Shown: positions 6,710 through 63,797, counted from the first letter of the stretch. The stretch: 64,000 nucleotides of DNA from an uncultured Victivallales bacterium (GCA_964472315.1 CAYYJS010000002.1:54315-118314); one strand, 5' to 3'. The notes: generated by a model from the letters alone, not told the origin. Translations and numbers: made by a program.

Positions 6710-6773
6710 ACGGCGGTGAAGCCGATGATGGTTGCGGTGCACGGATCTGACGTTGACGCAGAGGAACGACGGT

Positions 6774-26151: not shown

Positions 26152-26793
26152 ATGACCCTGACCGCGAGTGTGATGTTGACCGTGGTCGTGACCACGGCCG
26201 CTTGCGTTGTTCCATCGGTCGCGCAGACGCGGACGGGGGAGTACGGCGCCGGACGGGCGGGGGCTGAGGCCGAGACCGTGCGCATCCGCAAGTTAAACGG
26301 TCTTTCGCCGCGGTCCGTGGTAACCACGCCGGTCTATGGGTCGAGCGTCGGTCGCAGTGCGAAGCCGCCACGCGAATGGCTTGAGGTTCAAGTGATTTAC
26401 GACACGGCGCCGGCGTGGATCGACGAGTTGGTCATCGAGTACTTCGTCATGAGCATGGACCGTACGGAAGGCCGCAACACCTACTCCCTGTTCAAGACGA
26501 TCGTTCGCTATCGCGATGTGGAACGTGACCGTAACCACATCGGCGTGGCCTATCTGCTGCCTTCCGCGTTGAAGCGCTACGGCCGCGTCGTGGCGGTTGC
26601 CGTCGAGGTCAGCCACGATGGCAAAGTCGTGGCCTCCGAGACGGATACGGGCATCACGTTGCCTCCGGGGTGGTGGCGAAGCCCCGCGGTTGTCGAAAAC
26701 AAGGATATGACCGTTCGAGAGGGGTATTTGGTGGAGAAGTCCAAGTCGCCGTTCGCCTTGGTCAATGTGGATGACTATGAGGTGGCCAAGTAG
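26152..26793 (+). CDS. Hypothetical secreted protein, first gene of the pilus-like operon
   Basis: GGAAAGGTGG RBS 6 nt before ATG 26152. Signal peptide MTLTASVMLTVVVTTAACVVPSVAQ. Its stop TAG overlaps the GTG start of the next gene. Confidence 0.5.
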   Translation: MTLTASVMLTVVVTTAACVVPSVAQTRTGEYGAGRAGAEAETVRIRKLNGLSPRSVVTTPVYGSSVGRSAKPPREWLEVQVIYDTAPAWIDELVIEYFVMSMDRTEGRNTYSLFKTIVRYRDVERDRNHIGVAYLLPSALKRYGRVVAVAVEVSHDGKVVASETDTGITLPPGWWRSPAVVENKDMTVREGYLVEKSKSPFALVNVDDYEVAK

Positions 26794-29548: not shown

Positions 29549-30608
29549 CCTGAACATCCGCGGCGGGTTTGCGCACCTGTGGCGGCAGTACGATAAGCTC
29601 ATGGCGTTCCTGGCGTTGGCGCTGCTGCTCGCCTCCCTGGTCTATCTGGCCGTGCGGGTGGGGCTGATTCAGAGCATGAAACGCGACTTCGACATGGAGA
29701 TGAAGAGCCTGCGCGCGATGCACGAAAAGGCGGCGACGGTTGCCGCCGACGTCTTCGATGCCGCCGTGGCAGGGCTCGACAAACCGGTCTCCCTGGGGCA
29801 CCAGGCGTGGACTAACGTCGCGTTTTCGGTTCCCGAGGTGCGTGTTACGTGCACCGATCAACGGTGTCAGCGGCCCGTGCCCTATGCGGCCGCGACCTGT
29901 CCTCTGTGCCTGAGCCCGCAGCGCGAGGACAAGACGGAAGTCGAGCCACCCAAGGACAGCGATGGCGATGGCATGCTCGACGATTGGGAATTGCAGTACG
30001 GACTGGACCGGTACGACGCCGGGGACGCCGCGAACGACACCGATGGCGATGGGCACAAGAATCTCGGTGAATTCCTGGCCAAGACCGACCCGACCGATCC
30101 GGCCAGCCGTCCCCCTGTCATCGATCAGTTGCGCGTGGAGAAGGTTTCGAGCGTGAGCTTCGGCATCCTGTTCAAGAGCCGAGTTACGACCGGAAAAGGC
30201 GAGCGCTTCGGTCTGAACTACAGACAGGCCGGGCAGATTAAGACGGACTTCGTCGGCGTCGGGGATACCGTGGCGGGGTTCCTCGTCAGCAAGTTCGACC
30301 ACAAGACCAGAGATGTCGATCAGCCGTACAAGCACAAGCAGGACGTCTCGGAACTGACGCTTGTCCGCGGGGACCATACCATTGTGCTTGTTCGCGGGCA
30401 GGACTACAACGAGACCGAACAGACCGCGCACTTCGTGTCGCTATTCGACGATGCGAAGTATCTGGCCAAGCAGGGCGAGTTTCTGACGGTCGACGGGTCC
30501 AGGTACGAGGTTATAGAGATTGACACTCGCGGTGAGCGTGTTGTATTACGGCCGGAAAACGATTCCGGCCAGACAGTGGTTGTACGGCGTCTCACGGTGC
30601 CCCGGTGA
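29538..30608 (+). CDS. Membrane-anchored periplasmic protein with Cys4 zinc-ribbon and two DxDxDG calcium-binding motifs
   Basis: TM helix LMAFLALALLLASLVYLAV. CTDQRC ... CPLC. DSDGDGMLDDWE and DTDGDGHKNLGEF are thrombospondin-type-3/dockerin-like motifs. C-terminal beta-rich domain. Confidence 0.5.
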   Translation: MAISLNIRGGFAHLWRQYDKLMAFLALALLLASLVYLAVRVGLIQSMKRDFDMEMKSLRAMHEKAATVAADVFDAAVAGLDKPVSLGHQAWTNVAFSVPEVRVTCTDQRCQRPVPYAAATCPLCLSPQREDKTEVEPPKDSDGDGMLDDWELQYGLDRYDAGDAANDTDGDGHKNLGEFLAKTDPTDPASRPPVIDQLRVEKVSSVSFGILFKSRVTTGKGERFGLNYRQAGQIKTDFVGVGDTVAGFLVSKFDHKTRDVDQPYKHKQDVSELTLVRGDHTIVLVRGQDYNETEQTAHFVSLFDDAKYLAKQGEFLTVDGSRYEVIEIDTRGERVVLRPENDSGQTVVVRRLTVPR

Positions 30609-30679
30609 AGGGGTGGCCGTGATGGCTCGTGTTTGTCCTCGCTAGCGGGGTGTGAGAGAATCCCAAGGAGATGTTCTTC

Positions 30680-33600: not shown

Positions 33601-34396
33601 GACGAAAAGCGCGCCGGGCGGCATGACGCTTGCGGATGACATTCTCAGCATGAGCGCCGTGCTGACGAATCCGGAGATGTCGGTGATCCTCCACGCGTTG
33701 CAGCAGCGCGGGCACACGGACCTGCTTTCAGCGCCGAAGATCACCACGCAGTCGGGGCAGGAGGCGTCGCTCAAGGTGGTGACCGAGTACATCTACCCGA
33801 CCGAATTCGAGACGTCCGGCATTGGCGGCGGCACTACGGTTGGCGCCGGCGGCGCGGCGGTGGGGGGCGGCACGGTGGGCGCCGTCGTGACACCGACCGC
33901 GTTCGAGACGCGCGAGGTCGGCGTCATTCTCTCGGTGTTGCCGGAAGTGACCCCCGAAGGTCAGATGATCAACTTGACCATGTCGCCGGAAGTCGTCTCC
34001 GAGCCGACCTGGAAGAACTACGGATCGACGTATCAGTCGGACATCAACGGGGATGGCGTGCTCGAAACGCAGACGCTGAATATGGAACAGCCGTTTTTTC
34101 ATACGCGTCAGCTCAACACGAGCATGTTGATCTACAATGGTGCGACCGTCGTGATGGGCGGCATGATTACCGAGGTGCGGCACGATGTTGACGACAAAGT
34201 GCCGTTTCTCGGCGATATCCCGATTTTCGGACGGCTCTTCCGGAGCAAGAGCGAGACGAGCGAGAAGCGCAACCTGCTTATCTTTGTCACGGCCCGCCTG
34301 GTCGATCCGGCCGGGCGCCCCTTGGATCAGACGCGGCAGGGCTTGCTTACCGACGTGCTTGCGGAAGGCCTGATGGAGAAGGATGGCACGAAGTAG
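30680..34396 (+). CDS. pilQ: Secretin (PilQ/GspD family), giant form with low-complexity N-terminus and TPR-like segment
   Basis: Signal peptide. Roughly 450 aa that are Ala/Pro/Val/Glu-rich. TPR-like helices. C-terminal secretin domain (LLSAPKITTQSGQEASLKV ... VPFLGDIPIFGRLFRSKSETSEKRNLLIFVTARLV). Start could be 30671 or 30680. Confidence 0.85.
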   Translation: MQDDRRFITTCSILLAAFTVAAYAQTGKDESGTMAFEDLAIESAVEGALPTVSADDDLLKTLMSGTEADVPVGAIDVGKTLPTVPDGKSAVLTLDDVPASDLAVIEGAEAPAVDVAPVEEKGVDTRGSAAVAAAAEPPVNLVDVATELGLTGETEVVPPMPRAAVAAPPTDDLADLLAGEEETVTVPSVPAPPVIPVSLAEEVPVVESVTPLETVPEETATVSAVVDKVPAPPVVTDDIGIEDLIKELAGETEAEMAIERVPIETPQPPASVDVVPPPAEDVPPAPVVAPVEIVDQPPEFVDDMAIDADVLKSLTREARADTTTAAVAEAPAMELVIEGLIDEAELAVEPPTAPPPARVEKPVLPIEETVAEPVGSPSVAKPLPPVGKTVDTPTPAVAEDMGAAVENVTATGEPAIAERAVRNRSDVALDTFAVQESLKRIAEEAHGLESLQLGEQALADRQFQKAVTRFDEALRFIPERADTVESRGRARRGLAAAYYVQALSFERENELDKALAAAINAVNYGYIKAESTVRRLKLKIEKGPIAPPPTKDRRWEEESYLDIQRQIQEWLKRGREAYLAHEYEKSRGAFESVLARDPHNKEAIRMLRRASDKMYDRASMELESTRSRMMESVRDTWNPRDYGILETPMEAKVGRAATKPVDEIEREKILAKMQQIRIPEVDFRQANIRDVIDFLHSQSVENDTTTGEGRKGVNFILKLDEGAAKAGGRVTPAASTDPFAATADVFGGPAAAAPGAGADNLVTFGALDITLKEALDIVVDIAHLKYRIKESVVMIVPFDEASGEIIHRMYDVLPSFVTKSGELSEALRSSRSDRGGGDFIPMGEPGGGGGAPSAEQDWKVVFTEMGVEWPQRSSIKYVPTIGKLIVANTAENLTVFEKVLSVLNVIPYQVEIEARFVEVAQTDIDSLGLEWLLTDNWELAEKKTDAGLPLAARERLVLNANVNSGGFTKGNRFLTKSAPGGMTLADDILSMSAVLTNPEMSVILHALQQRGHTDLLSAPKITTQSGQEASLKVVTEYIYPTEFETSGIGGGTTVGAGGAAVGGGTVGAVVTPTAFETREVGVILSVLPEVTPEGQMINLTMSPEVVSEPTWKNYGSTYQSDINGDGVLETQTLNMEQPFFHTRQLNTSMLIYNGATVVMGGMITEVRHDVDDKVPFLGDIPIFGRLFRSKSETSEKRNLLIFVTARLVDPAGRPLDQTRQGLLTDVLAEGLMEKDGTK
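30900..32000 (+). repeat. Low-complexity, reiterated Pro/Val/Ala/Glu-rich coding segment inside the secretin gene
   Basis: Recurring VPAPPV, AEEVPVVESVTPLETVPEE and VDVVPPPAEDVPPAPVVAPVEIVD units. It produces the long spurious antisense ORF 30592..31416. Confidence 0.5.
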
Positions 34397-51029: not shown

Positions 51030-51309
51030 AAGTGGTCGATACCGACAGAATCGAGGCCCAAAGCTGGTGCGCCCCGAAAGGAAGGGCAATCGGCCAATGA
51101 CATGACGTGAAAAATACTTGCCATGGCACACGCAGACGTGCTACCGTACTGACACTAAGGGAAACCATTAGGTTCTAGAATGTGACTCGATTGCATCGCA
51201 GAATCAGAATAGGGTTGACGGGCTGCGATAGGTGATCTAGCATATTCTTCAGACACTAAGAGGCATGCTTTAGTAACTGAATGTGTGTTGCCGAAAGGGA
51301 GGACCAGCG

Positions 51310-52365
51310 ATGAAAAAGATAGTGTTGGTTGCGTGCGCAGTGGCTATGCTGAGTTCGTTCGCTCCGGCGGACACGGTAACCAGCGTCAATGTGGTGGGTG
51401 TGTTCAATGTCACAGTGGAGGCCGGAGTGTCTAATGCGCTCACCTTCATTGGTGTGCCAATGACGAAACTTCCAGTGGCTCGCGGTCAAGTATTGAGCAG
51501 CACGGCGAGTACTCTCACAGGCAACGGCGTCACTTGGGATTCGAATGCGTTCGCTCCCGGTGGCGGGGCAGCCGGTGAGAACGGTGTCAGCACCTATTAC
51601 GTGGAAATCACGAGCGGCGCGATGGAAGGGCGGCATTTCTATATTACCGCGAATGACACAACCACGCTGACCCTCGCGACAACCGAATTGGGTGGCGGCG
51701 TGGCGGACGGCCAGAATTTCAAGATCATCCCTGCAAATCGCGTACGTGATGTATTCGGGGAGCCAGGTTCAGCAGATATTAAGTTGCGTGGCGGTTCGAC
51801 ATCTGCGGATGCCGATAGTCTCCGGGTATGGGATAACAGCCAGGGCAAATGGTCTAGTCCAATATTCTACCAGAACGCTGGCCGCAATCCTGCTAATGCA
51901 TGGCTGCAGGGCGGTGTGGCGGCAAATGACCTTGTGATTGATCGTGATGTTGGTGTATTAGTCCAGACACTGGGCGCTGCAGGACGTGACGACGTAAAGA
52001 TTGCCGTCCTTGGCGAAGTATCGGGAAATGATCAGAGTATCGTCTTGGAATCGGGTGCAGCGCTTCTAGGTGGAATGGTTGCTGTGGATACCCCGATTGG
52101 GCAGGCTGGGCTTGAGCCCCCGGTTCTTGAGGGTGGATCAACTTCAGCTGATGCCGATTCAATTCTGTACTGGGATGTAGCGCAGGGCAAATGGTCGACT
52201 CCCGTATTTTTTCAGAATGAAGGGCGTAACCCCGCCAATGCATGGCTGCAGTCGGGTGTTATCGTCAACCAAACGTTCATACTCAAAGCTGGACAAGCGT
52301 ACTTTTTCCGTTTGGCTCCTGGCACGGATGGCAATTTGTGGAATCGTCCCTCGCCGTTGAAGTAG
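51310..52365 (+). CDS. Secreted protein with an internal approximately 45-aa duplication
   Basis: GGGAGG RBS 7 nt upstream. Signal peptide MKKIVLVACAVAMLSSFA. Repeat units GGSTSADADSLRVWDNSQGKWSSPIFYQNAGRNPANAWLQGGV and GGSTSADADSILYWDVAQGKWSTPVFFQNEGRNPANAWLQSGV. Confidence 0.6.
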   Translation: MKKIVLVACAVAMLSSFAPADTVTSVNVVGVFNVTVEAGVSNALTFIGVPMTKLPVARGQVLSSTASTLTGNGVTWDSNAFAPGGGAAGENGVSTYYVEITSGAMEGRHFYITANDTTTLTLATTELGGGVADGQNFKIIPANRVRDVFGEPGSADIKLRGGSTSADADSLRVWDNSQGKWSSPIFYQNAGRNPANAWLQGGVAANDLVIDRDVGVLVQTLGAAGRDDVKIAVLGEVSGNDQSIVLESGAALLGGMVAVDTPIGQAGLEPPVLEGGSTSADADSILYWDVAQGKWSTPVFFQNEGRNPANAWLQSGVIVNQTFILKAGQAYFFRLAPGTDGNLWNRPSPLK

Positions 52366-52434: not shown

Positions 52435-53103
52435 ATGAAAATGTACAAGTTAGGGGCAATCTCAAGTGTGGTGTTTTTTTTCGGAGTTGTTGTGCAGTCG
52501 CAAGCGGTGCTGAGTGTAAATATCGCTGGAGGCGGTGATTCGGTGCTTTATAACAGTTCGGGAATTGCGCTGAGTGATTCCGGTCTCGTCTTTGAACTCA
52601 TTGTTGATACAGACAACAATACCGATATAGCAGGTCTGGTAACTTCTAGGATGCTGAATATGACAGGCGATTCGGTATTGCTTGGCGGCGTTCATGCGTC
52701 CGCTGTGAATGACCTGGTTGTCGGATTTTACAACTGGACGTACGATTCCGGAGTCCATTTCATTCAGGAGGGGCTTGGCTATGAGCATGAATTCTCCGTG
52801 CCAGATGCGCATGCGTCAGACGCCTTCTATATCCGTTGGTTCAATGCGGATAAGAGCGAAGCAGGTTTCATCTATTCGGATTCGGACTCTTGGGCCACGC
52901 CTCCAGATTCAGGGTCATCAATTCTCACGCCGGACATTAGTTACTGGGTCTATTCGACGACGACACGAGTGGCTGGCAATGATGGCACCATGAACGGTTC
53001 ACTCGGTTGGCAGACCGTTGCGCCGGTGCCGGAGCCCACATCGCTCGCGTTGTTGGCGATCGGTATGGCGACGTTAGCCGTTAGCCGTCGGCGTCGCACT
53101 TAA
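52435..53103 (+). CDS. PEP-CTERM sorting-domain protein (exosortase substrate)
   Basis: Signal peptide. The C-terminus is VPEP-TSLALLAIGMATLAV-SRRRRT, i.e. PEP motif, TM helix, then a basic cluster. Confidence 0.8.
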   Translation: MKMYKLGAISSVVFFFGVVVQSQAVLSVNIAGGGDSVLYNSSGIALSDSGLVFELIVDTDNNTDIAGLVTSRMLNMTGDSVLLGGVHASAVNDLVVGFYNWTYDSGVHFIQEGLGYEHEFSVPDAHASDAFYIRWFNADKSEAGFIYSDSDSWATPPDSGSSILTPDISYWVYSTTTRVAGNDGTMNGSLGWQTVAPVPEPTSLALLAIGMATLAVSRRRRT

Positions 53104-53200
53104 GTCGACGGGTATTTGATACGCAGCGGGGAGCTGGCCATGGGTCAGCTCCCCGTTTTCTTTCTTGTACTCGAGCGATGCTTCCCGCTTACTGAATCCG

Positions 53201-56200
53201 ATGAAAACGCCCCCTTCAGTCACGCGAGTTGCAAGCATTGTGCTGGGCACGGTTCTGGGGCTCGCTGCGCTGGGTATCTACGGGAGTACGGTGCCCCAAG
53301 GTGCCTATCCCGGCGGATCGGCCGAGTTGATCGTTCAGCAGACCGGTCTTGTGCCTGTGATATCGCCGCGTTTTCCGCTCTGGCGTGCCGCCGCATGGTT
53401 GCTCAAGTTCATTCCCGCGGGCGATCTGCCACTGCGGCTCAACCTGTTCAGCGCGCTCTGCGGAGTGCTGGTGGTGTGGTTGCTTCATGCGACGATGGTG
53501 CGCGCCATTCACGTCGTGCTGGAGGATTCGTCCGCGCGCGCGGGACGCGCGTTCGTGGCGAAGCAGGCGGCGGGGGTGGCGGCGGCCGTGGCTCTGATGG
53601 TATCGGTTCCGTTCTGGTGCGTTTCGAATCGCGCGCACACGGGCGCGTTCGACCTGTTATTGCTCGTCGCGTGCGCGTGGTTGCTGTTGCGTTACCACGA
53701 GCGGGGGCGGTTGCGGGATGCGCTGGCGCTTGTGCTGCTGTTTGGTGCGGGCCTCGCCGAGTTGGCGACAATGATCGTGTTCGCGCCGCTGCTGGCGGTG
53801 GCGCTGGTCTACTGCCTGTGGTCGCATGAATCGCTGCGCCCCGGCCCCATTGCCGGGTTGACGGTCGCCTTCCTTGCCGCCGCATCATCCGTCTATCTCC
53901 TGGCGGCATGGGCCTTCCACGGGTCGCCGGGCTATGCGCTCAGGGACTACAGCGGGTTCCTGGAGATCGTCTGGCACATGTGGCGTGAACAGTACGGTCT
54001 CATCACGTCAAGCCTGCCGAGGGAAGGATGGCTCATCATCCTCTTCGTTTCGGTCGTGCCGTGGCTCGCGTGTCTGGTCGTGGCGCGGCGCGGCATCAAC
54101 GACGAACGCGATTACGGCAGCGCCATCCTGCATGTCGTGCTGACGGCCCTTGCGCTGGGCGTGCTCCTGAACTCGCGGTTCAGCCCGTGGGCCATTCTGG
54201 GTGGCGATCGGTTGCTCGTAACTCCGTACCTCCTGACGAGTATGCTGTACGGGTATCTGACGGCATACTGGTTTCTGTTGCCGACGCGGTGGATTGCCGA
54301 GAGCGACCGGCGCGGAGCGGAGTTTCTTCGCCGGTGCCTGGGTCCGGCGCTGGCCATTCCCCTTTTGGGGGTGCTGGTATGGACCGGTATCCGCAATGCG
54401 CCTGAGGCGAACGCCCGGCGCGGCGGCCTTGTCGACGCCTATGCATCGCGCGTCGTCGATGCCCTGCGCGGACGGACATGGCTTGTGACCGATGGCGTCA
54501 TTGACAACCATATCCTGCTGGCGGCGTACGAGCGAGACGTCCCATTACGCCTGATCAGCGCGAGCCCCTATGTGAATAGTGTCTACCTGAAATATGTGGG
54601 GACACTGTTCGACGACCCTCAACTGAAGAATCTTGCGGCGCTCGGAACGCTGCCGCTGCTTGCCGAGTGGATGTCGCGCGACCCGGATATCGCCGGCAAG
54701 CTCGCGGTCCTCGATCTGCCGGACCTCTGGGTGAGCGCGGGGTATTCCGCCATTCCGTCCGGATTGGTGTATTTCGGCGGTGCGCCCGGCGCTACCGTTC
54801 CGGGCGACATCGTGGCGCAACAGGCCGATGTCTGGGCGTACATGTCGGCGATGAGCGATCGGCGGGACACGCTGCCTGCCGATGTCCGCAGGCTCGTGGA
54901 CGAGTTCTATCGACACACCGGCGTGCTGGCCAACAATCTCGGCGTCGCGCTTGAATCCGAGTCCCGGCATGCGGAAGCCGAGGCCTGCTATCGGCAGGCG
55001 CGCCGGCTTTCACCCGACAACGTCAGCGCCCTGCTTAACCTTGCCGTGATGGTGCGGGAGAAGCGGATCGCGGACGATGGCGGCGCGATCCAACAGGCGA
55101 TGGACCGGCTCGCCGAGGAGAGCAAGGGTCGATACCGCATCTGGTCGCTCTCGCGGTACTATGGGTATGTACGCGTGCCGGAAGCCTTCGCGGACTTGGG
55201 GTGGACGTGGGCGCAGTCCGGGCGTCCCGAGCTCGCGCAAGCGCGCATGGCGCAGGCGCTCAGTCTCGCCGGCGCCGATAACCGCGCCGGACTGCAGCGC
55301 ATGATGGCCGGGGTCCTGCTGCTGCAGGGCGATGCGGACGAAAGCGCGGAGATACTCGAGAAGTTGGTGGCCGAGAACCCGAAGGACGTTCGCAGTCTGT
55401 TGGGGTTGGCGCGTGTCGAACTGCGGCGCGGCGGGCTGGATGTTTCCGAAAATTTGTTGCGGCGCGCGGAAGAGGCGGGCGCCGATGCCAATGCGCTGGT
55501 TTACGACCGTGCGCGACTGGCGATGGCCCGCGGCAAGACCGATGAAGCGCGCGAGGCCCTGACCGCATTGATACGGCAACGTTCCGAGGATCCTGAACTG
55601 TGGGCGCTCTTGGCGGAAGTGGCGCTGTTGGCTCACGATTTCGGGCGCGCCGGGGACCATCTTGGGCGTCTGGAACAGCTTGAAGGACCGCGCGGGTTCC
55701 GCGGGGCGGTGCTGCGCGGACGCATGGCGCTTATGCAGTCGGACCTGGAGCGCGCGCGACACGAATTCGAGGCGGCGGCGCAGATTCGTCCGAATGACGT
55801 ACCCCTGATGGACATGCTGCTGCGCATCTGCGTCGCCTTGCGGCAACAGGGCGCGGTCTGGCACTACGCGCGGGAGATCCTGAAGCGTGACCGCAACCAT
55901 GCGTTCGCGCTCAACATGCTGGGGTTGCTGCGTGTGGGGGAGGGACGGCTCGATCTGGCCGAGGCCGCTCTGCGGCGCAGTCTGGAAATCAGACGGACGC
56001 CTGCCATTCTCAACGATCTCGCTTGGACGTTGTGCCTGCTGAAACAGTACGAGGAGGCCGAGCGACTGATTCGCGAATGCCTTGCGCAGAACGCCGCGAA
56101 CTATGCGTATCAGGACACGCTGGGTACGATTCTGATGCGTGTCGGGCGACACGCCGAGGCGGCCGAAGCGTTCGAGAAGGCGCTGGCGCTCTATCAGCGG

Positions 56201-56356
56201 GACCTGCAGGTCCACGTGAAAATGGCGGAGTGTCAGGCGGTGTTGGGCAATCGCGACCGTGCGAGATCGTTGTTGGATGCGCTCGCGCCCTTTGCCGGGG
56301 CGCTGTCGGAGGAAGACCGCGAGTCGATCGTGAAGGTCCGACGGTTGCTGGAGTAG
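53201..56356 (+). CDS. Large polytopic membrane protein (about 11 TM) with a C-terminal approximately 600-aa TPR array
   Basis: N-terminal hydrophobic helices through approximately residue 430. More than 12 TPR-like units follow (AEAEACYRQARRLSPDN ... ALALYQRDLQVHVKMAECQ). Start taken at MKTPPSV. Confidence 0.6.
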   Translation: MKTPPSVTRVASIVLGTVLGLAALGIYGSTVPQGAYPGGSAELIVQQTGLVPVISPRFPLWRAAAWLLKFIPAGDLPLRLNLFSALCGVLVVWLLHATMVRAIHVVLEDSSARAGRAFVAKQAAGVAAAVALMVSVPFWCVSNRAHTGAFDLLLLVACAWLLLRYHERGRLRDALALVLLFGAGLAELATMIVFAPLLAVALVYCLWSHESLRPGPIAGLTVAFLAAASSVYLLAAWAFHGSPGYALRDYSGFLEIVWHMWREQYGLITSSLPREGWLIILFVSVVPWLACLVVARRGINDERDYGSAILHVVLTALALGVLLNSRFSPWAILGGDRLLVTPYLLTSMLYGYLTAYWFLLPTRWIAESDRRGAEFLRRCLGPALAIPLLGVLVWTGIRNAPEANARRGGLVDAYASRVVDALRGRTWLVTDGVIDNHILLAAYERDVPLRLISASPYVNSVYLKYVGTLFDDPQLKNLAALGTLPLLAEWMSRDPDIAGKLAVLDLPDLWVSAGYSAIPSGLVYFGGAPGATVPGDIVAQQADVWAYMSAMSDRRDTLPADVRRLVDEFYRHTGVLANNLGVALESESRHAEAEACYRQARRLSPDNVSALLNLAVMVREKRIADDGGAIQQAMDRLAEESKGRYRIWSLSRYYGYVRVPEAFADLGWTWAQSGRPELAQARMAQALSLAGADNRAGLQRMMAGVLLLQGDADESAEILEKLVAENPKDVRSLLGLARVELRRGGLDVSENLLRRAEEAGADANALVYDRARLAMARGKTDEAREALTALIRQRSEDPELWALLAEVALLAHDFGRAGDHLGRLEQLEGPRGFRGAVLRGRMALMQSDLERARHEFEAAAQIRPNDVPLMDMLLRICVALRQQGAVWHYAREILKRDRNHAFALNMLGLLRVGEGRLDLAEAALRRSLEIRRTPAILNDLAWTLCLLKQYEEAERLIRECLAQNAANYAYQDTLGTILMRVGRHAEAAEAFEKALALYQRDLQVHVKMAECQAVLGNRDRARSLLDALAPFAGALSEEDRESIVKVRRLLE

Positions 56357-57272: not shown

Positions 57273-59063
57273 GTGACATCGAGAGTGAAGAACGAACAAG
57301 GCCACACATTCCACATCCCGGTCATGGGTACCGGGTTCACGATCGATACCCCGTTGCGAGTGGCCCGCTATGGCATTTCGTCCGTCGTATCGCTGGTCGA
57401 CGATGTCCTGATCGAGTATGTTCGGCGCCACCATTGTACGGCTTCCGGCGAGCCCTACGAGCCGATCGGCGCTCGTGAACCGGACTCGCGCGCCCGCCGT
57501 ATCACCGCCTATCTGGACCTGCTCCACCGCATGATCTCTCGTCAGGTGGACGCTTTGCGGGCATCCCCGTTCGAGCCGGGCAGCGAGATTACCCGCTACT
57601 ACGAACTGCTGCCCGAGGGACCGCGCAAAGCGCAGTACCGAGACATGCAGGCATGCACCGATCCCGTGCGGCGGGCCGCGCTTCAGAAGGAGTTGCGCAC
57701 GAGGACCACGGTGGGTACGGTCGATGTGAACATCATGACGAAACTGGATCGGCAGCCTTACCGTGATGGGAAGAAGCTCGCGCACGAATTCAGCGACGCC
57801 ATGTCGGCGTTGCGCGGCTATGCCAACAGCGTGCTGTGTTCATCCATCATTTTCTCCGCGGGATTGAATCCTCATTTGTACGGGTATGTGACGGCGTTCA
57901 AGGATTTCTTTCCGGATGCGACCGGTGGGTTCCGGAAGCAGATCGTGCTCAAGGTCAGCGATTTTCGCTCAGCCATGGTGCAGGGCCGGTACTTCGCCAA
58001 GCATGGGTTGTGGGTTTCCGAGTTCCGCGTGGAATCCGGCCTCAACTGCGGTGGACATGCGTTTGCGACCAAAGGCGATCTGGCGGGGCCGATCCTTCAG
58101 GAGTTTGTCGATCGGCGCGAGGAACTCGCGGCGCAGTTGCTGAAGGTTTACGGCAAGGCTGTGGCGGCGGCCGGCTATGCCGCTCCCAGCGTGGCGCCGC
58201 CCGTTCGTGTCACCTATCAGGGCGGTGTGGCGACGGCGGCCGAGCATGAGATGCTGATGGAGACTTTTCATCTTGACGGCATCGGGTGGGGAACGCCGTT
58301 TCTGCTTGTGCCGGAGGCCACATGCGTCGACGACGATACGCTTCGGAAGCTGGCGGAGGCCGACGAGGAGGCGGTTTGCCTCGGCGAAGCGTCGCCGCTT
58401 GGCATTCCGTTCTGGACCCTGCGCGATTCGGCCAGCGAGGAGGCTCGCCGTCGGCGCATCGCCCAGGGCGCGCCCGGCAGCGGTTGTCCAAAGGGATTCC
58501 TCGAGCTGGATACGGAGTTTGGCGAGATGCCGCTCTGCCGTGCCTCGCGCGCCTACCAGTCCCTGAAGTTGGCGAGTCTTTCCTCCGCCGACCTGACCGA
58601 GCCGCAACGCGAGGCGGTGCGGCGGGATGTCATGGCGCGATCGTGCATCTGCCACGATCTCGGTGGCGGCGCGGGCATCAAGTACGGTTTCGACAGGGAT
58701 GCCACGCCGGCTGTCTGCCCGAGCAAGAGCATCGTTTCGTTTTCGAGCATCGTCTCGTTCGACGACATGGTCGGGCATATCTACGCCCGGCTTTCGCTGC
58801 TGACGGACGCCCACCGGCCGCATGTCTTCCTGCGCGAATTGTCTCTGAACATCGCGTATTTGCGCCAGCAGATCGACCGGCATACGCTTGGCCTGGCGGT
58901 GCAGAAGGCGGGGCATTTCCGCGAATTCCACGACAACCTGTCAGCGGGCATTGCGTACTACCGCGAGCGTGTCGCGCGTCTTGCGCTCGACGCTCAGGAT
59001 CGGTTTTCGAGCGAGCTCGCCAACCTCGAGTCCGAGCTTTCCGCCCTGCCCCTGCCGGCGTAG
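57273..59063 (+). CDS. Hypothetical 596-aa protein; weak resemblance to FMN-dependent TIM-barrel (nitronate monooxygenase/FabK-like) N-terminal domain
   Basis: HIPVMGTGFTIDTPLRVARYGISSVVS and LNCGGHAF echo the PxxxxPMxGxS/T ... AGG and GGH motifs of NPD-family enzymes. A Cys-rich C-terminal half is unrecognised. Confidence 0.35.
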   Translation: MTSRVKNEQGHTFHIPVMGTGFTIDTPLRVARYGISSVVSLVDDVLIEYVRRHHCTASGEPYEPIGAREPDSRARRITAYLDLLHRMISRQVDALRASPFEPGSEITRYYELLPEGPRKAQYRDMQACTDPVRRAALQKELRTRTTVGTVDVNIMTKLDRQPYRDGKKLAHEFSDAMSALRGYANSVLCSSIIFSAGLNPHLYGYVTAFKDFFPDATGGFRKQIVLKVSDFRSAMVQGRYFAKHGLWVSEFRVESGLNCGGHAFATKGDLAGPILQEFVDRREELAAQLLKVYGKAVAAAGYAAPSVAPPVRVTYQGGVATAAEHEMLMETFHLDGIGWGTPFLLVPEATCVDDDTLRKLAEADEEAVCLGEASPLGIPFWTLRDSASEEARRRRIAQGAPGSGCPKGFLELDTEFGEMPLCRASRAYQSLKLASLSSADLTEPQREAVRRDVMARSCICHDLGGGAGIKYGFDRDATPAVCPSKSIVSFSSIVSFDDMVGHIYARLSLLTDAHRPHVFLRELSLNIAYLRQQIDRHTLGLAVQKAGHFREFHDNLSAGIAYYRERVARLALDAQDRFSSELANLESELSALPLPA

Positions 59064-59085
59064 CGCCCGCCGCCATCGCCGTCGC

Positions 59086-59691
59086 TCATTTATCGGCCGG
59101 GTCTTCTTCCTTTACCGGTTGCGCTTGCTTCGCCGGTTGGGCCGCGTCGGAAGGATGTACACCGACGGCTGTCAGCTTCAGTTCGGCCATCGCGGCGGCC
59201 TTGCGCGCGGCAATCGCGGCATCCTGTGCCGCGAACATCGCCTCGCGTTCGGCGGCGGTTGCGATCATGGTGAGCGGCTTGTCGTCGGATCCGAACATGC
59301 GTCCGACGCCGCGGACGTTGTCGGTGTAGGCACCGACGAAGCGACGTCCGTCTTCCCACGTATAGATGCCATGGCCATGCCGGGAACTGGCCTGCCATTG
59401 GCCCTCATACGTGGCGCCACCTTCCTGGATCCAGACAGCGTAACCATCCACCTGACCATCCTTCCACGCGCCCTGAACGCGTTCGGTGACCACGCCGTTC
59501 ACCGACCATACGGCGGTGCCGGGACCATCGGCCTTACCTTGCTTGACGTGTCCGCTCCACGCCACGGACTCACCGTCGCCCGGCGCCGGGTTCCACACCT
59601 GCGCGCCCGTGTTGGAACACGTCATCCACCCGCCATCCGCGTGCGCGACGACGGCAATCGTAACCAGCAGCGTGACCATCATACCCTTCAT
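59086..59691 (-). CDS. Secreted MORN-repeat protein
   Basis: Signal peptide MKGMMVTLLVTIAVVAHA. Four MORN-like units (YEGQWQASSRHGHGIYTWEDG and others). Ala/Gln/Lys-rich C-terminal tail. The ATG overlaps the upstream stop (ATGA). Confidence 0.65.
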   Translation of the reverse strand: MKGMMVTLLVTIAVVAHADGGWMTCSNTGAQVWNPAPGDGESVAWSGHVKQGKADGPGTAVWSVNGVVTERVQGAWKDGQVDGYAVWIQEGGATYEGQWQASSRHGHGIYTWEDGRRFVGAYTDNVRGVGRMFGSDDKPLTMIATAAEREAMFAAQDAAIAARKAAAMAELKLTAVGVHPSDAAQPAKQAQPVKEEDPADK

Positions 59692-62258
59692 GTCTTGAAC
59701 TCCTCCCATGCTCCTGTCTTTTCGACGAGATCCACGTTCTCCAAAAACAGTGCCACGACATCCGGATCGAATTGCGTTCCGGCGCCGCCACGGATGGCTT
59801 CCGTCGCGTCGGTCACATTCATGTGTTTGCGGTAAGGACGGTCCGACCGCATGGCGTCCCAGGCATCGACCACCGCGAACAGGCGCGCACCGAGGCAGAT
59901 ATCGACGCCGACCTGTCCCCGCGGATAGCCTTTGCCGTCGAAATGCTCGTGATGCGAAAGCACGAGTTCGGCCGCATCCTTGAGGTCGGGACTCCGACTG
60001 ATGATCCGGTACCCCACTTCGGGGTGCGTCCGCATGACCGACCACTCGGTTGCCGTAAGGGCGCCTGCTTTCAACAGGATGGCATCCGGAATGGCGATCT
60101 TGCCGATGTCGTGCAGAAGCGCGCCCTGGCGGAGGGTTTCCAGAATCGGCCCCTTCAGGCCCCATTTTACACCGAGCATATGCGTGACGTTCTGTACGCG
60201 CAGGCTATGCTGTCCCGTCGCGTGTTCGCGCGCGTCGAGCATGGCCGCCATGGCTTCAAGCGTAAACTCGAAAGACTCGCGCGTCCGCTCGAGCGACATG
60301 GTCAGGTCACGGCTCTTCTGCCGGACCATGTCTTCGAGGTGCATCTGGTATTGCCGGTTTTCCCCGCGCAGACGGCGATACTCGACGGCACGCGCCAGCG
60401 TGACGGTCAACTGCTCGCGTTGCACCGGTTTCTGAATGAAGTCATAGGCGCCGTGGCGCAGGCTCTCCACGGCATTGTCGAGCGTGGCGTCGCCCGTGAT
60501 GACGATCTTGACGAGGTCGGGCTTGCGCCGTTCCATCTCGTCGAGCACGTCGATGCCGCTGGCGTCGTTCAAGTTCAGGTCGACCAGAACGACGTCGGTG
60601 TTGCCTTCGTCGCTTGCCAGACGTGTCAAGACCGCGGCGGCGGTGTCGTAGATCTCGACATCGTACCCGGCCGTGGAGATCAGCAGTTCCAAGATCTTGA
60701 GCACCGAACGGTCGTCGTCGACGACCATGATGCGGCCGCGCCGGGGCGGCGTCGACACGACCGGCACGGCGGATGACGGTGTCGGGGCGTCTGCATCGAT
60801 GCCGACCGAAGGTGTATTCTCGGTCCACACGGCGTAGCGGTCGCGGCCGTTGCGCTTGGCCTCGTAGAGCGCCTGGTCGGCGCGGGCCAACACGATGTCG
60901 TGGTCGAGCATGTCGGCGCCGTCGTTCTGGCTGCCCGCGGCGCCGATCGAAACGGTGGCGTGCAAGTTGTGCGTTCCCTTGCAGAAGATATGGTTGCGGA
61001 TGGTGTTGATGAGTCGCTCGGACATGGACCTGAGCGCATCGCCGCCGGCGTCCGGCAGGATCATGACCAGTTCGTCGCCGCCGTAGCGGGCAATGACATC
61101 GGACGTGCGGCAGTGATGCAAGGCGAGGTCAGAGAGTTCGCGCAGCACCTCGTCGCCGACCGGGTGTCCGTAGGTGTCGTTGATGGTCTTGAAGTGATCA
61201 ATATCGATGATCACGATGCCCGTCTTGAAGCCGTAGCGACGCCCGATCTGCCATACCGAATCGAGTTCGTGCTGGAGATGACGCCGGTTGAACAGTCCGG
61301 TCAACTCGTCCCGCACGGCCAGTTCGCGGATCCGGTGGAAGGCGATCAGGACCGTCGAGAGGTGGTTGGCGGCATGGTACAAAATGGATGTATCCGCACC
61401 CTTGCGGATGTGGTTGTCGGGCGGCGAGAGCGTGAGGAGACCGCGGATCCGGCCGCCGATGACGATCGGCACGCTCATGAATTCCTTGGGAGGCGCGGCC
61501 CCGCCATCGACCGGCTTCGGGCCGTAGACCTCGACCTTCAGGCCGGACGCGACCATGCTGCCGGACAGCAGTTCATAGCGCTCCCGCATGTCCGTTTCCA
61601 TGACCTTCAGGAACTCCGGCGAGACCGGTTCGCTGAGCGAAATCGCCATCAGCGCCTGATCTTCCTCGATGGTGAAGATGCCGGTGGCCATGGTGGGCAG
61701 AATACCGCCGAAACCCGAGGCCAGGCGTTTCAACGCTTCGGGCAGACTCGGCGATTCGACGGCGGCCCGACTGATCTCCCGAAGCAGCCCGAACTGTTGT
61801 TGTACCTGTGCGAGCGCCGCGTGGTCGGGATGCTGCAGCCGCTCGCGCGTACGTTCGGCTTCCGCCTTGACCCCGGCGATGAGTTGCGTGTACGAGATGG
61901 GTTTCTCGAGGATGGTCGTCACACCCATCCCGGCGGCCTGCTCGCGGACGCGCGGTTGGATGTAGCCGCTGAACACGACGACCCCGAGCCACGGGCGGAT
62001 GCGCAAGGCTTCGGTCAGGAATGTGATGCCATCCATCGGTTCCATCATGAGGTCGGAGACGATGACATCGAACGGCTGAGATAGAAGCAACTGGAGCCCT
62101 TCGCAGCCGTCGGCAGCCGTGACGACATCGCAGCCGGACATGGTCAACGAGCGACTCACCACATCGCGCAGCGCCGGTTCGTCGTCGAGAACCAGAACGC
62201 GCGTGCGCGCACCGTCCACGGGTTCGCTACCCGGCCGTGGGGTTGTCTCGTCAGTCAT
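59688..62258 (-). CDS. Multidomain c-di-GMP signalling protein, REC-GAF-GGDEF-REC-HD-GYP
   Basis: REC1 (VLVLDDEPALRD ... IVSDLMMEPMDG). GAF-like segment. Diguanylate cyclase core RYGGDELV. REC2 (IMVVDDDRSV ... VLVDLNLNDASG). HD-GYP (HDIGK ... HHEHFDGKGYP). Start at the internal ATG 62258. Confidence 0.8.
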   Translation of the reverse strand: MTDETTPRPGSEPVDGARTRVLVLDDEPALRDVVSRSLTMSGCDVVTAADGCEGLQLLLSQPFDVIVSDLMMEPMDGITFLTEALRIRPWLGVVVFSGYIQPRVREQAAGMGVTTILEKPISYTQLIAGVKAEAERTRERLQHPDHAALAQVQQQFGLLREISRAAVESPSLPEALKRLASGFGGILPTMATGIFTIEEDQALMAISLSEPVSPEFLKVMETDMRERYELLSGSMVASGLKVEVYGPKPVDGGAAPPKEFMSVPIVIGGRIRGLLTLSPPDNHIRKGADTSILYHAANHLSTVLIAFHRIRELAVRDELTGLFNRRHLQHELDSVWQIGRRYGFKTGIVIIDIDHFKTINDTYGHPVGDEVLRELSDLALHHCRTSDVIARYGGDELVMILPDAGGDALRSMSERLINTIRNHIFCKGTHNLHATVSIGAAGSQNDGADMLDHDIVLARADQALYEAKRNGRDRYAVWTENTPSVGIDADAPTPSSAVPVVSTPPRRGRIMVVDDDRSVLKILELLISTAGYDVEIYDTAAAVLTRLASDEGNTDVVLVDLNLNDASGIDVLDEMERRKPDLVKIVITGDATLDNAVESLRHGAYDFIQKPVQREQLTVTLARAVEYRRLRGENRQYQMHLEDMVRQKSRDLTMSLERTRESFEFTLEAMAAMLDAREHATGQHSLRVQNVTHMLGVKWGLKGPILETLRQGALLHDIGKIAIPDAILLKAGALTATEWSVMRTHPEVGYRIISRSPDLKDAAELVLSHHEHFDGKGYPRGQVGVDICLGARLFAVVDAWDAMRSDRPYRKHMNVTDATEAIRGGAGTQFDPDVVALFLENVDLVEKTGAWEEFKT

Positions 62259-62373
62259 GGGGTCAAGGTAGACATTTCGGGAGGGGAAAGCAAGTGCGGG
62301 AGGGGCTTGATTACCGGCCCTTAACATGCTAGAAGTGGTTCCACGGTGTGCAACAGCGGAGGTTTCACGGATA

Positions 62374-63797
62374 TGGCTGCGCCTTTCATCGACGATGATT
62401 TTCTCCTGGAAACGGAAGCGGCCCGGCGGCTCTACCACGACTACGCCGCCGCCATGCCGATCTGCGACTACCACTGTCATCTTCCCCCGCGTCAGGTGGC
62501 GACCGATGTACGATGGTCAAATCTGACCCAGGTGTGGCTCTATGGGGACCATTACAAGTGGCGTGCCATGCGGTCCAACGGCGTGTCGGAACGCTTCTGT
62601 ACCGGCGATGCGACCGACCGCGAGAAGTTCGACGCTTTCGCCGCCACGATGCCCTACCTGCTGCGCAATCCCATGTACCATTGGTCGCACCTGGAACTGA
62701 CCCGTTACTTCGGCGTGGACGCCTTGCTGTCGCCGTCGACGGCCGATGCGGTATGGGCACGAACATCCGAACGGTTGACCGATCCCGACATGTCGGCACG
62801 CGGGCTGATGCGGCGGAGCAACGTGCGGCTGGTATGCACGACGGACGATCCGATCGATACGTTGGAGTACCATGCCGCGTTGGCGAACGATGCCTCCTTT
62901 GACGTGCAGGTGCTGCCCACTTGGCGGCCCGACAAAGGCATGGCCGTAGAGACGCCTGCCGTGTTCAACGACTGGGCGGACCGCTTGGCGGCGGCGGCCG
63001 GCATGGACACCGGCACCTTGCCGAAGTTCCTCGAAGCTCTGCGCAAACGCCACGACTTCTTCGCCGCCCGCGGATGCCGGCTCTCCGACCACGGAGTGGA
63101 GACGGTGTTTTTCGACGACTACACCGACAAGGAGATCGCCGACATTTTCGACGCTGTGCGGGGCGGCGGATCGGTCGGTCCCGACGCCGTCCGCAAGTTC
63201 AAGTCCGCGATGATGTACGAATTCGGTCGCATGGATGCCGAGAAGGGATGGACACAGCAGATCCACTACGGTGCGATGCGCAACAACAACTCCCGCCTCT
63301 TCTCCCGGCTTGGACCCGATACGGGGTTCGACAGCATCGGCGACTGGCCGATCGCGCGGGGCCTCTCGCGCCTGCTGGACCGGCTCGATCTCGAGAATGC
63401 CTTGCCGCGCACCATTCTCTACACGCTCAACCCGCGCGATAACGAAGTGCTCGGCACCATGATTGGGAATTTCCAGGACGGCAGCGTGCCCGGCAAGATG
63501 CAGTTCGGCAGCGGTTGGTGGTTCAACGACCAGATGGACGGCATGACCCGGCACATCGAGGCGTTGTCCCAACTGGGCTTGCTCAGCCGCTTCGTCGGCA
63601 TGCTCACGGATAGCCGTTCCTTCCTGTCGTATACCCGCCACGAATACTTTCGGCGGATCCTGTGCGGCATCCTGGGGCGCGACATCGCGCGCGGGCTGAT
63701 TCCGTTGGATTTCGATCTTGTGGGTGGCATGGTGAAGGATATCTGCTATAACAATGCCGCGCGGTATTTCGGTTTCCGGCTGGAGACCGCGAACTAG
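62374..63797 (+). CDS. uxaC: Glucuronate isomerase
   Basis: MAAPFIDDDFLLETEAARRLYHDYAAAMPICDYHCHL is the canonical UxaC N-terminus. About 475 aa. Confidence 0.85.

Follow-up and report, generated by a model that had tools for sequence, protein, structure and literature searches.

The protein encoded by gene A, in a 64,000-nucleotide window from an uncultured Victivallales bacterium (GCA_964472315.1, CAYYJS010000002.1:54315-118314), is best explained, with a probability of roughly 0.6, as a cytoplasmic c-di-GMP turnover enzyme consisting of two fused response regulators, with gene B as a lineage-specific partner. According to this proposal, two complete response regulators were fused head to tail through a disordered linker of ~25 residues. 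The first module (REC1-GAF-GGDEF) would be a WspR/DgcR/PleD-type diguanylate cyclase under feedback inhibition, and the second (REC2, a 64-residue helix and HD-GYP) an RpfG-type phosphodiesterase, probably binuclear and c-di-GMP-specific. Phosphorylation of D69 and D560, through one or more unlinked kinases or acetyl phosphate, most likely controls the two outputs separately, a small molecule may act as a further input through the GAF domain, and one polypeptide would thereby raise or lower the c-di-GMP pool; we infer that both activities are real and switched by phosphorylation. Gene B, predicted in one subclade to share a transcript with gene A and to be coupled to it in translation, would encode a small, probably periplasmic MORN protein, a lineage-specific co-expressed envelope protein that may serve as an output or accessory outside the enzyme mechanism.

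An ORF check showed that the coordinates of both genes are exact (Table 1). The gene A protein is identical to the public protein P0001, and its maximum Kyte-Doolittle value over a 19-residue window is 1.37, indicating a soluble protein with no transmembrane segment.

Table 1. Features of the gene A/gene B locus, in positions of the 64,000-nucleotide window
Feature	Position	Strand	Basis
Gene A, 856-aa soluble REC-GAF-GGDEF-linker-REC-helix-HD-GYP protein	59688..62258	-	ORF and Pfam
REC1, residues ~20-135	61854..62201	-	Pfam Response_reg and conservation
GAF-like domain, residues ~147-315	61314..61820	-	Sub-cutoff GAF_2, homologues, AlphaFold topology
GGDEF diguanylate cyclase domain (predicted activity), residues 314-474	60837..61319	-	Pfam, TIGR00254, alignments
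Disordered inter-module linker, residues 483-504	60747..60812	-	AlphaFold pLDDT, alignment
REC2, residues 510-620, NtrC/DctD-like	60399..60731	-	Pfam, conservation, PDB matches
Single ~64-residue helix from REC2 to HD-GYP, residues 614-677	60228..60419	-	AlphaFold secondary structure
HD-GYP phosphodiesterase domain (predicted activity), residues 669-834	59757..60254	-	Pfam HD_5, alignments
Shine-Dalgarno-like GGGAGGAG within the end of gene A	59700..59707	-	Sequence
ATGA stop/start overlap of genes A and B	59688..59691	-	Sequence
Gene B, 201-aa predicted exported MORN-repeat protein	59086..59691	-	Pfam MORN, PDB profile, orthologue alignments
Signal-peptide-like N-terminus of gene B, residues 1-18, MKGMMVTLLVTIAVVAHA/D	59638..59691	-	Hydropathy and n-h-c pattern
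Four MORN repeats of gene B, residues ~45-137	59281..59559	-	Pfam and profile
Ala-rich segment of gene B, residues ~143-173, AEREAMFAAQDAAIAARKAA	59173..59265	-	Alignment; predicted helical from sequence
596-aa FabX/FabK/nitronate-monooxygenase-like TIM-barrel protein	57273..59063	+	Convergent neighbour, without Pfam family

The initial annotation had placed both catalytic domains in a single polypeptide with a receiver before each, and Pfam indeed found GGDEF, HD-GYP and two Response_reg domains there. The family comprises at least 117 clusters at 90% identity and 55 representatives at 50%, all of 820-900 aa, suggesting that the architecture is under purifying selection. Residue conservation was counted over 117 full-length homologues (40-78% identity) from Kiritimatiellia/Verrucomicrobia MAGs. 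A loss of essential catalytic residues, which would have spoken against a bifunctional enzyme, was not observed: the A-site, Mg/GTP and I-site residues are invariant among these homologues, apart from D395 (D in 113, E in 4) and R472 (116/117), and HD-GYP retains its metal ligands at seven of eight positions. The fusion-like anatomy is visible in both structure and homology. The AlphaFold model gave confident domains (pLDDT 82.6) with an undefined mutual arrangement (pTM 0.38), and the linker had pLDDT <50 and an undefined consensus in the family alignment (A1). Stand-alone REC-GAF-GGDEF proteins of ~485 aa match the N-terminal half, with 39-49% identity across both halves, and stand-alone REC-HD-GYP proteins of ~370 aa match the C-terminal half at 41-49% identity.

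The GGDEF domain was recognized by Pfam (E 3e-41; PF00990, 141.2 bits against a cutoff of 23.8) and TIGR00254 (156.1 bits against 37.4), and aligned with the active cyclases 3ign, WspR and PleD, sharing its motifs with 3ign and WspR. Its cyclase residues are D352-x-D354, K357, N360, D369, R391-Y-G-G-D-E-L397, K468 and R472, among which D352, D354, K357, N360, D369, R391, G393, G394, E396 and K468 are invariant. D352, N360, D369, K468 and R472 are presumably the equivalents of PleD D327, N335, D344, K442 and R446 in Mg2+/GTP binding. The signature RYGGDELV (residues 391-398) had been described as a GGDEL variant of GGDEF; the variant is present, yet it is not degenerate and should be harmless, because the fifth position varies freely among homologues (F39/I37/L22/M13/V6). 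An RxxD I-site (R384-T-S-D387) lies five residues upstream of the A-site, and the proposed check of its conservation showed R and D to be invariant in all 117 sequences. Considering these intact motifs, diguanylate cyclase activity is predicted for module 1. The Hypr-GGDEF subtype of cGAMP synthases was also considered as a class for this domain, and Asp369 is invariant in place of Ser/Thr.

The HD-GYP domain, as conceived in PROSITE PS51832, was likewise identified well above threshold (Pfam HD_5/HD, E 4e-38; HD_5, PF13487, 131.4 bits against 27.2; HD 72.3 against 22), with the signature HHEHFDGKGYP at residues 769-779. Its characteristic residues are H684, H716-D717, H745, H769-H770-E771, D774-G-K-G-Y-P779, D798, D801 and R807-P-Y-R810. 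Alignment with PmGH (4mcw), V-cGAP3 and PA4781 matched H684, H716, D717, H745, H769, H770 and D798 to PmGH metal ligands. The metal ligands, whose conservation the initial annotation had proposed to check, are thus kept at 7/8 positions, together with both substrate motifs, K730-A-G732 at the KPG/KxG position and R807-P-Y809-R810 as RxY[K/R]. Motif and metal-ligand residues vary little or not at all across the family (H770 is H in 90 and Q in 27). The position of the third-metal Glu, PmGH E185, is occupied by Ala680 (family A48/S20/Q14/T8/N7/E6), and the Glu/Asp that marks the PmGH-type trinuclear subclass is thus absent from the gene A protein. Previous work associated RxY[K/R] with c-di-GMP specificity and a missing E185 equivalent with the binuclear class (10.1101/2021.11.05.467447). 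Judging from these residues, the domain is probably of the binuclear type and is predicted to be a c-di-GMP-specific phosphodiesterase, with the alanine leaving its product (pGpG or GMP) uncertain.

Both receivers match Response_reg (PF00072; E 2.5e-43, 147 bits against a cutoff of 30.2). REC1 carries D25, D26, the phospho-acceptor D69, S97 and K119; D26, D69 and K119 are invariant in the 117 homologues, with D/E at position 25 and S/T at position 97. The corresponding residues of REC2 are D514, D515, the phospho-acceptor D560, T588 and K610, where D515, D560 and K610 are invariant, position 514 is D/E and position 588 T/S. The best PDB receiver matches of REC2 were NtrC1 and DctD, and a comparison of REC1 with REC2 revealed no significant similarity. 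The idea of two phosphorylation inputs switching synthesis against hydrolysis is plausible, and phosphodiesterase activity in the RpfG family requires receiver phosphorylation (10.1101/2021.11.05.467447). No histidine kinase gene occurs within ~50 kb of gene A, and the nearest kinase is a hybrid kinase at 6732-8807, 51 kb off; because no cognate kinase is linked, we can only infer phospho-control. The GAF assignment stood in part. In this copy GAF_2 scored below the Pfam cutoff (E 2e-3, 18.6 bits against 28.6), but among 34 aligned family members GAF_2 was matched in 20 (best E 1e-8), GAF in 17 and GAF_3 in 11, and the modeled topology of residues 147-315 (a-a-b-b-a-b-b-b-a, pLDDT ~70-92) is of the GAF type, with an exit helix (287-315) running into GGDEF. 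No ligand of this GAF-like domain could be identified.

An alternative explanation, considered distinctly unlikely, is that a single catalytic activity counts in vivo, the other domain being an allosteric sensor or scaffold. For instance, the A-site or I-site of GGDEF could bind GTP or c-di-GMP and so tune HD-GYP, a role that degenerate GGDEF domains have in some GGDEF-EAL enzymes, or HD-GYP could serve to bind c-di-GMP or to interact with proteins. In many tandem GGDEF/phosphodiesterase proteins a single domain is active although the motifs are intact (PMC6205966), and the missing third-metal ligand of HD-GYP points in this direction. Except for that Glu, however, the tested A-site and metal-site residues are kept in 117 sequences down to 40% identity, which is not what a degenerate sensor domain would show, and an intact receiver for each catalytic domain makes sense if each output is regulated. 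Turnover of another dinucleotide, with cGAMP made by a Hypr-GGDEF and cleaved by a V-cGAP-like HD-GYP, is extremely improbable. Although the HD-GYP domain matches V-cGAP3 (5z7c) nearly as well as PmGH (110 against 118 bits), the equivalent of PleD D344 is the invariant Asp369, whereas Hypr-GGDEFs carry Ser at this position, and R807-P-Y-R810 is the c-di-GMP-type RxY[K/R] rather than the RxxQ/N of cGAMP-preferring enzymes.

Gene B follows gene A directly. At the junction (...AAG ACA TGA AGG...), the gene B ATG (59691-59689) overlaps the gene A TGA (59690-59688), as the initial annotation had read it, and GGGAGGAG lies 8 nt upstream of the gene B ATG; GGAG-type motifs were found at the equivalent place in 6/6 related junctions read (L081, L084, L085, L001, L089 and L090). 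The overlap is conserved in related loci, measuring 4, 8 or 26 nt in 8/8 loci with at least 52% enzyme identity (this locus and seven others). The MORN gene is absent from 6/6 more distant loci, whose enzymes are at most 51% identical. The suggested pairing with a MORN partner therefore holds within the subclade but not across the family; the MORN gene is a clade-specific operon partner and not integral to the enzyme mechanism.

The MORN assignment is supported by Pfam (PF02493, 30.4 bits against a cutoff of 22.5), and a profile of five gene B orthologues matched PDB crystal structures of MORN1 with E 4e-35 over six stretches. The N-terminus shows an n-h-c pattern (MK, GMMVTLLVTIAVV, AHA/D) in seven orthologues, six of which have an AxA-type cleavage site, and hydropathy reaches its maximum of 2.23 over residues 4-18; judged heuristically by eye and hydropathy, gene B probably has a signal peptide and is secreted. 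Alignment A3 displayed invariant columns at T145, R149, A155, D157, A158, A159, I160, A162, R163 and K164, and the Ala-rich segment is followed by a low-complexity tail ending in EEDPADK. Since the gene A protein has no membrane segment, a periplasmic gene B product could not touch it, and such a product would have no direct route to an enzyme that is soluble in the cytoplasm.

The association of gene A with the MORN gene may instead be inherited operon structure without function, the true neighbour, if there is one, being the convergent 596-aa flavoprotein; this is regarded as somewhat unlikely. The loss of the MORN gene from all six loci with enzymes at most 51% identical fits such a view, the 596-aa gene staying adjacent in two of them (L086 and L091) as well as in five MORN loci, and a 4-nt ATGA overlap is, to our knowledge, the commonest gene junction in bacteria. 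Against it, the overlap is kept in all eight subclade loci in three geometries, while the genes upstream of gene A change from locus to locus (uxaC, UbiA, Rnf, Ldh_2, saccharopine dehydrogenase). MORN identity also tracks enzyme identity over six loci (65/54/47/46/46/44% for gene B against 79/73/58/59/53/56% for gene A). The 596-aa family, moreover, is very widespread in other phyla without the enzyme, and convergent genes share no transcript. The outer flanks differ in each of the seven loci where the 596-aa gene adjoins gene A, and this gene is at most a candidate member of a system with genes A and B. A lineage-specific partnership of the enzyme with gene B remains the preferred explanation.

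The gene A family is a conserved, uncharacterised family of Kiritimatiellia-type bacteria built wholly from well-known parts. Catalogues have listed fusions of GGDEF and HD-GYP from 1999 onwards (Galperin 1999/2001; Galperin & Chou 2021 preprint). Catalogued composites such as Methanocella RCIX2274 (REC-PAS-PocR-GGDEF-HD-GYP) and MASE9-HD-GYP-GAF-GGDEF proteins combine GGDEF, HD-GYP and sensor modules as gene A does, and [PAS/GAF]n-GGDEF-REC-HD-GYP relatives in the public protein library share its C-terminal core at 42-48% identity. By sequence comparison, the architecture is thus not unusual as a kind, as the family is large and conserved and other sensor modules are also found attached to the GGDEF-REC-HD-GYP core. 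The literature consulted on such composites yielded no description of the five-domain order REC-GAF-GGDEF-REC-HD-GYP, and that on these families contains enzymology for HD-GYP proteins without GGDEF and none that we found for a GGDEF and HD-GYP composite. Gene B residues ~45-137 strongly match the repeat profile of eukaryotic MORN proteins (MORN1, junctophilins, MORN4, radial-spoke proteins; E 2e-24 against junctophilin-2). The solved relatives are all eukaryotic and cytoplasmic, whereas gene B encodes a bacterial protein with only four repeats, a signal-peptide-like N-terminus, the Ala-rich segment and the low-complexity tail; no characterised bacterial periplasmic MORN protein was found in the literature.

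The N-terminal half of the gene A protein resembles WspR, DgcR and PleD, in which a receiver likewise drives a GGDEF domain whose A-site and RxxD I-site are intact; PleD, Leptospira DgcR (6zxm) and WspR were its best PDB matches (134-137 bits). It differs in having a GAF domain between receiver and GGDEF, as in REC-GAF-GGDEF proteins (the source protein of PDB 6d9m), and in lacking the second pseudo-receiver of PleD. Family models of PleD (NF007135, 211.5 against a cutoff of 474) and DgcR (NF047654, 172.4 against 500) were not reached. Residues ~507-856 share the order of receiver, helical linker and HD-GYP, and every HD-GYP signature motif, with the RpfG family (Xanthomonas RpfG, T. maritima TM0186 and P. 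aeruginosa PA4781), and PA4781 also lacks an E185-type third-metal ligand. Unlike in that family, this module follows a complete cyclase module in the same polypeptide. The NosR-family REC-HD-GYP model (NF053512) scored 261.8 bits, below its cutoff of 400.

Synthesis and hydrolysis domains also share one polypeptide in GGDEF-EAL enzymes, and bifunctional examples under phospho-control include Legionella Lpl0329 with its kinase Lpl0330, Rhodobacter BphG1 and Vibrio ScrC. Phosphorylation or a partner protein has been proposed, or demonstrated, to determine the balance of activities in GGDEF-EAL enzymes (PMC9756655). In the gene A protein, by contrast, the hydrolytic domain is HD-GYP instead of EAL, each catalytic domain has its own receiver rather than one shared input, and no kinase is linked. 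In the Xanthomonas RpfG::GGDEF::PilZ system, a REC-HD-GYP protein works physically with GGDEF proteins through the GYP and DxD motifs, the partners being separate and the motility effect independent of cyclase activity (PMC3749722). The gene A protein keeps the GYP and DxD motifs and could represent a covalent version of this pair.

The reading frames and the junction sequence agreed exactly with the coordinates of the initial annotation and with its ATGA overlap between gene A, encoding the composite c-di-GMP enzyme, and gene B, encoding a MORN-repeat protein. At the junction (...AAG ACA TGA AGG...), the last two bases of the gene B ATG and the following A form the TGA of gene A, and a Shine-Dalgarno-like motif, GGGAGGAG, lies inside gene A, 8 nt upstream of that ATG. 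In the window sequence, 88 nt separate the start of gene A from uxaC. A search of 58800-62600 for promoters and terminators found no more than shuffled sequence would give, and no Rfam family or tRNA was found anywhere in the window.

Coordinates of the genes and segments discussed (window positions unless another contig is named)
Feature	Contig	Position	Strand	Remark
Gene A (enzyme)	window	62258 to 59688	minus	ORF, 856 aa
Gene B (MORN-repeat protein)	window	59691 to 59086	minus	ORF, 201 aa
Gene B tail end	window	59086-59110		
uxaC (glucuronate isomerase)	window	62346-63797		divergent from gene A; PF02614 E 1.5e-201
596-aa protein	window	57273-59063	plus	convergent with gene B
Hybrid kinase	window	6732-8807	plus	REC-PAS-HisKA-HATPase_c-REC
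Type IV pilus/T2SS-like cluster	window	26793-34396	plus	
PilM-like protein	window	26793-28463		within the cluster
Secretin	window	30671-34396		within the cluster; 1241 aa
TIGR02597-family secreted repeat protein	window	51283-52365		
PEP-CTERM protein	window	52435-53103	plus	222 aa
TMEM260/PMT-like TPR glycosyltransferase	window	53165-56356		
Single-domain receiver	P0066 contig	6099-6476		locus coordinates
Hybrid kinase	P0066 contig	7460-8623		REC-HisKA-HATPase; locus coordinates
PilZ-domain protein	L089	8632-8961	minus	109 aa

The domain order REC-GAF-GGDEF-REC-HD-GYP proposed for the gene A product was borne out by Pfam for both receivers (E 2.5e-43), the GGDEF domain (residues 314-474, E 3e-41, also matched by TIGR00254) and the HD-GYP domain (HD_5/HD, residues 669-834, E 4e-38). 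The GAF domain stayed below threshold in the window copy (GAF_2, residues 135-322, E 2e-3), though GAF_2 was matched by 20 of the 34 aligned homologues (best 1e-8), GAF by 17 and GAF_3 by 11, and residues 147-315 were modelled as a-a-b-b-a-b-b-b-a, which is the GAF topology. The AlphaFold model, built on the 34-sequence alignment (mean pLDDT 82.6), also showed disorder at residues 483-504 and one unbroken helix from the second receiver (REC2) to HD-GYP (residues 614-677); its pTM of only 0.38 means that the domains are well folded and their mutual arrangement is undefined. REC2 has no detectable similarity to the first receiver (REC1), so gene A is not an internal duplication, and no transmembrane segment was found (maximal 19-residue hydropathy 1.37). 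Scores far under the cutoffs of the curated equivalogs PleD, DgcR and NosR-type REC-HD-GYP indicated a protein that has their domain types and belongs to no named family.

Alignment of 117 full-length homologues (820-920 aa) from the protein search showed that the residues expected of working domains are kept. Invariant positions are D26, the phospho-acceptor D69 and K119 in REC1, and D515, D560 and K610 in REC2, while D25 and D514 are Asp or Glu and positions 97 and 588 are Ser or Thr. In the GGDEF domain, D352-x-D354, K357, N360, D369, R391, G393, G394, E396 and K468 are invariant, D395 is nearly so (113 Asp, 4 Glu), and R472 is retained in 116 of the 117. The initial annotation had asked about conservation of the I-site, and R384xxD387 has canonical spacing and is likewise invariant. 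A degenerate, sensor-only GGDEF, which it had named as a possible refutation, was not what was found: the catalytic residues are kept, GGDEL is an ordinary variant in a family whose fifth signature residue is F, I, L, M or V (39, 37, 22, 13 and 6 sequences), and direct alignment gave the same motifs as in the active cyclases 3ign and WspR. The presence of Asp369, which we take to be the counterpart of the guanine-reading Asp of PleD, excludes the Hypr subtype; cGAMP chemistry was rejected on this residue together with the RxYR motif.

Seven of the eight metal ligands of the reference structure PmGH (4mcw) have counterparts in the HD-GYP domain (H684, H716-D717, H745, H769-H770 and D798), and HHExxDGxGYP, K730-x-G732 and R807-x-Y-R810 are all present. 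The exception is the third-metal Glu, E185 of PmGH, where the window copy has Ala680. Glu678 was considered as the third-metal ligand of a trinuclear site and was rejected, as it aligns with PmGH Asp183. Across the family, the E185 position is mostly not Glu (A48/S20/Q14/T8/N7/E6). HD-GYP proteins without this Glu form the binuclear class, which often, not always, stops at pGpG, and RxY[K/R] marks specificity for c-di-GMP rather than cGAMP (Galperin & Chou, 10.1101/2021.11.05.467447). The gene A product is predicted to contain a working cyclase open to feedback inhibition and a working phosphodiesterase that is binuclear and specific for c-di-GMP, with a phosphorylatable receiver ahead of each. 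As a separate observation, residue 770, the second His of HHE and a metal ligand in PmGH, is His in the window copy and Gln in 27 of the 117 family members, so the phosphodiesterase site may be altered or inactive in a sub-lineage.

The family is well populated. A word-indexed search found at least 117 full-length clusters with 40-78% identity to the gene A product and the same Pfam set in all; the named members trace to MAGs of Kiritimatiellae or 'Verrucomicrobia' and, like a public protein identical to the gene A product, carry only the annotation 'diguanylate cyclase'. When 1.84 billion representatives at 50% identity were searched exhaustively with phmmer, the best 150 matches included 55 proteins that align in a single stretch over essentially the whole query (27-53% identity, 810-890 aa). 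The same 150 included proteins with [PAS]n-, GAF-PAS- or bare N-termini on the GGDEF-REC-HD-GYP core (42-48% identity over about 308-852), as well as stand-alone REC-GAF-GGDEF (about 485 aa) and REC-HD-GYP (about 370 aa) proteins. With such halves and other sensor fusions among its relatives, the gene A product appears to join a WspR/DgcR-like and an RpfG-like regulator covalently, and the GGDEF-REC-HD-GYP core appears to be a recurrent module with exchangeable sensors. A profile search of genome contigs with the family alignment was dominated by generic GGDEF and HD-GYP motifs and gave at least two true full-length loci (L001 and L002) among the matches listed; other loci with apparently broad query coverage were rejected as separate adjacent genes.

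Gene B contains one Pfam-significant MORN repeat (30.4 bits) and, by pattern, four (residues about 45-137). A profile of five orthologues matched MORN1 crystal structures at E 4e-35, together with junctophilins and MORN4, and no NCBIfam family was found. All seven orthologues share a basic start, a 12-15-residue hydrophobic core, a conserved WNP motif and the repeats, six of them carry an AxA|D/E-type cleavage site, and the complete ones have in common an Ala-rich AQDAAIAARKAA segment and a low-complexity tail; there is good circumstantial evidence that the protein is exported. The tails, otherwise variable, end in [ED]-x-P-[AS]-[DA]-K in four of the seven aligned sequences (EEDPADK, EAPADK, KDPADK or EDPSAK), which may be a sorting or recognition tag. 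A word-based search with gene B gave five matches and missed orthologues later revealed by synteny, and a metagenome scan with the MORN alignment produced one weak locus among the matches listed.

In the window, L084 (enzyme 78-79% and MORN protein 65% identical to the window copies) and L081 (73% and 54%), the enzyme gene is immediately followed by a MORN gene that overlaps it by 4 nt. The arrangement recurs with an overlap of 26 nt in L085 (58-59% and 46%), L001 (58% and 47%) and the P0009 contig (enzyme 56%), and of 8 nt in L089 (55-56% and 44%) and L090 (52-53% and 46%). MORN identity drops with enzyme identity over the six loci compared, and the genes upstream of the enzyme vary in nearly every locus (uxaC, UbiA, Rnf, Na/Pi transporter, Ldh_2, saccharopine dehydrogenase, GntR). 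Overlaps that are kept, upstream genes that vary and identities that fall together argue for a vertically inherited, tightly packed operon of one subclade. The enzyme does not always have a MORN partner, since no MORN gene lies downstream of it in L091 (51%), L086 (50%), L002 (48%), the P0066 contig (47%), L087 (45%) and L092 (43%). The gene A product is predicted to be soluble and cytoplasmic and that of gene B probably periplasmic, so the two could be linked functionally only by an indirect route, which might run through membrane kinases or amount to plain co-expression of an envelope protein with a c-di-GMP controller.

The convergent 596-aa neighbour had no Pfam, NCBIfam or PDB sequence match (the PDB search gave noise) and at least 8,000 homologues at E<=1e-5; among the matches listed, the closest are about 55-60% identical, come from Planctomycetota, Hydrogenedentota and others, and are all 'hypothetical'. 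Its AlphaFold model (pLDDT 87, pTM 0.88) resembles the FMN TIM barrels of H. pylori FabX, FabK and nitronate monooxygenases (Foldseek E 4e-10), with about 250 extra helical residues. C405, C422, C458 and C460 are invariant, suggesting a possible Fe-S site. Seven loci have this gene next to the enzyme gene, two of them without a MORN gene. In L089, a PilZ-domain protein (c-di-GMP receiver family) is encoded just past the FabX-like gene, whose product there has 597 aa, and thus two genes away from the enzyme and its MORN partner.

The window neighbours of gene A are housekeeping genes (tig-clpP-clpX, ispD, NAD synthase, rho, tRNA synthetases), and no histidine kinase was found within about 50 kb of it; the only kinase among the window ORFs scanned is a hybrid kinase 51 kb off. 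On the P0066 contig, whose enzyme is a distant family member, the gene just downstream of the enzyme gene encodes a single-domain receiver and not a MORN protein, and a hybrid kinase gene is close by. This arrangement fits phosphorelay control and may point to a set of phosphorelay partners in that lineage, but it proves nothing for the window enzyme. Elsewhere in the window, a secreted protein ends in the PEP-CTERM sorting signal VPEPTSLALLAIGMATLAVSRRRRT (TIGR02595, 26.9 bits against a cutoff of 16) in a region of GC 0.57-0.59 against about 0.64. Its gene adjoins those for the TIGR02597-family protein and the glycosyltransferase, and these genes are of cell-surface or exopolysaccharide type, a typical c-di-GMP output class. 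The type IV pilus/T2SS-like cluster includes two proteins without a Pfam match.

That the gene A product is a real, conserved signalling enzyme is well supported; it is probably bifunctional, judging from its motifs, and the proposed mechanism is plausible. A wider reading would group the enzyme and the MORN protein of the periplasm with the FabX/FabK-like flavoprotein as a conserved Kiritimatiellia module. In it, a self-contained push-pull c-di-GMP controller with two independent phospho-inputs on one polypeptide would be coupled to the state of the envelope or of lipids, and the MORN protein would form the periplasmic part of a sensing circuit that is otherwise unlinked. We regard this reading as unlikely, with a probability of roughly one in ten.

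What decides whether a composite c-di-GMP enzyme synthesises or hydrolyses the messenger is a long-standing question, and nearly all work on it has concerned GGDEF-EAL proteins in which both domains share one input. In the gene A family each catalytic domain has its own intact receiver, with a flexible linker between, so D69 or D560 substitution or BeF3- could show whether one polypeptide integrates two phospho-signals. A full-text search pairing 'Kiritimatiellota' with 'c-di-GMP' found no papers, and the accessible literature yielded no characterised bacterial periplasmic MORN protein or partner; gene A would offer a first biochemical way into c-di-GMP signalling in Kiritimatiellota, and gene B could give a first clue to the function of exported MORN proteins in bacteria. 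Because every component is a well-known domain and public databases already label the protein a diguanylate cyclase, the gain is incremental, not conceptual.

GGDEF-HD-GYP tandems are mentioned in reviews (PMC6205966, PMC4646962), and in the accessible literature neither the REC-GAF-GGDEF-REC-HD-GYP order nor a two-receiver bifunctional enzyme was found described or studied biochemically. Previous studies showed that phosphodiesterase activity in the RpfG family depends on receiver phosphorylation (10.1101/2021.11.05.467447) and that Xanthomonas RpfG binds GGDEF proteins through GYP and DxD motifs (PMC3749722), both of which are invariant in the gene A family.
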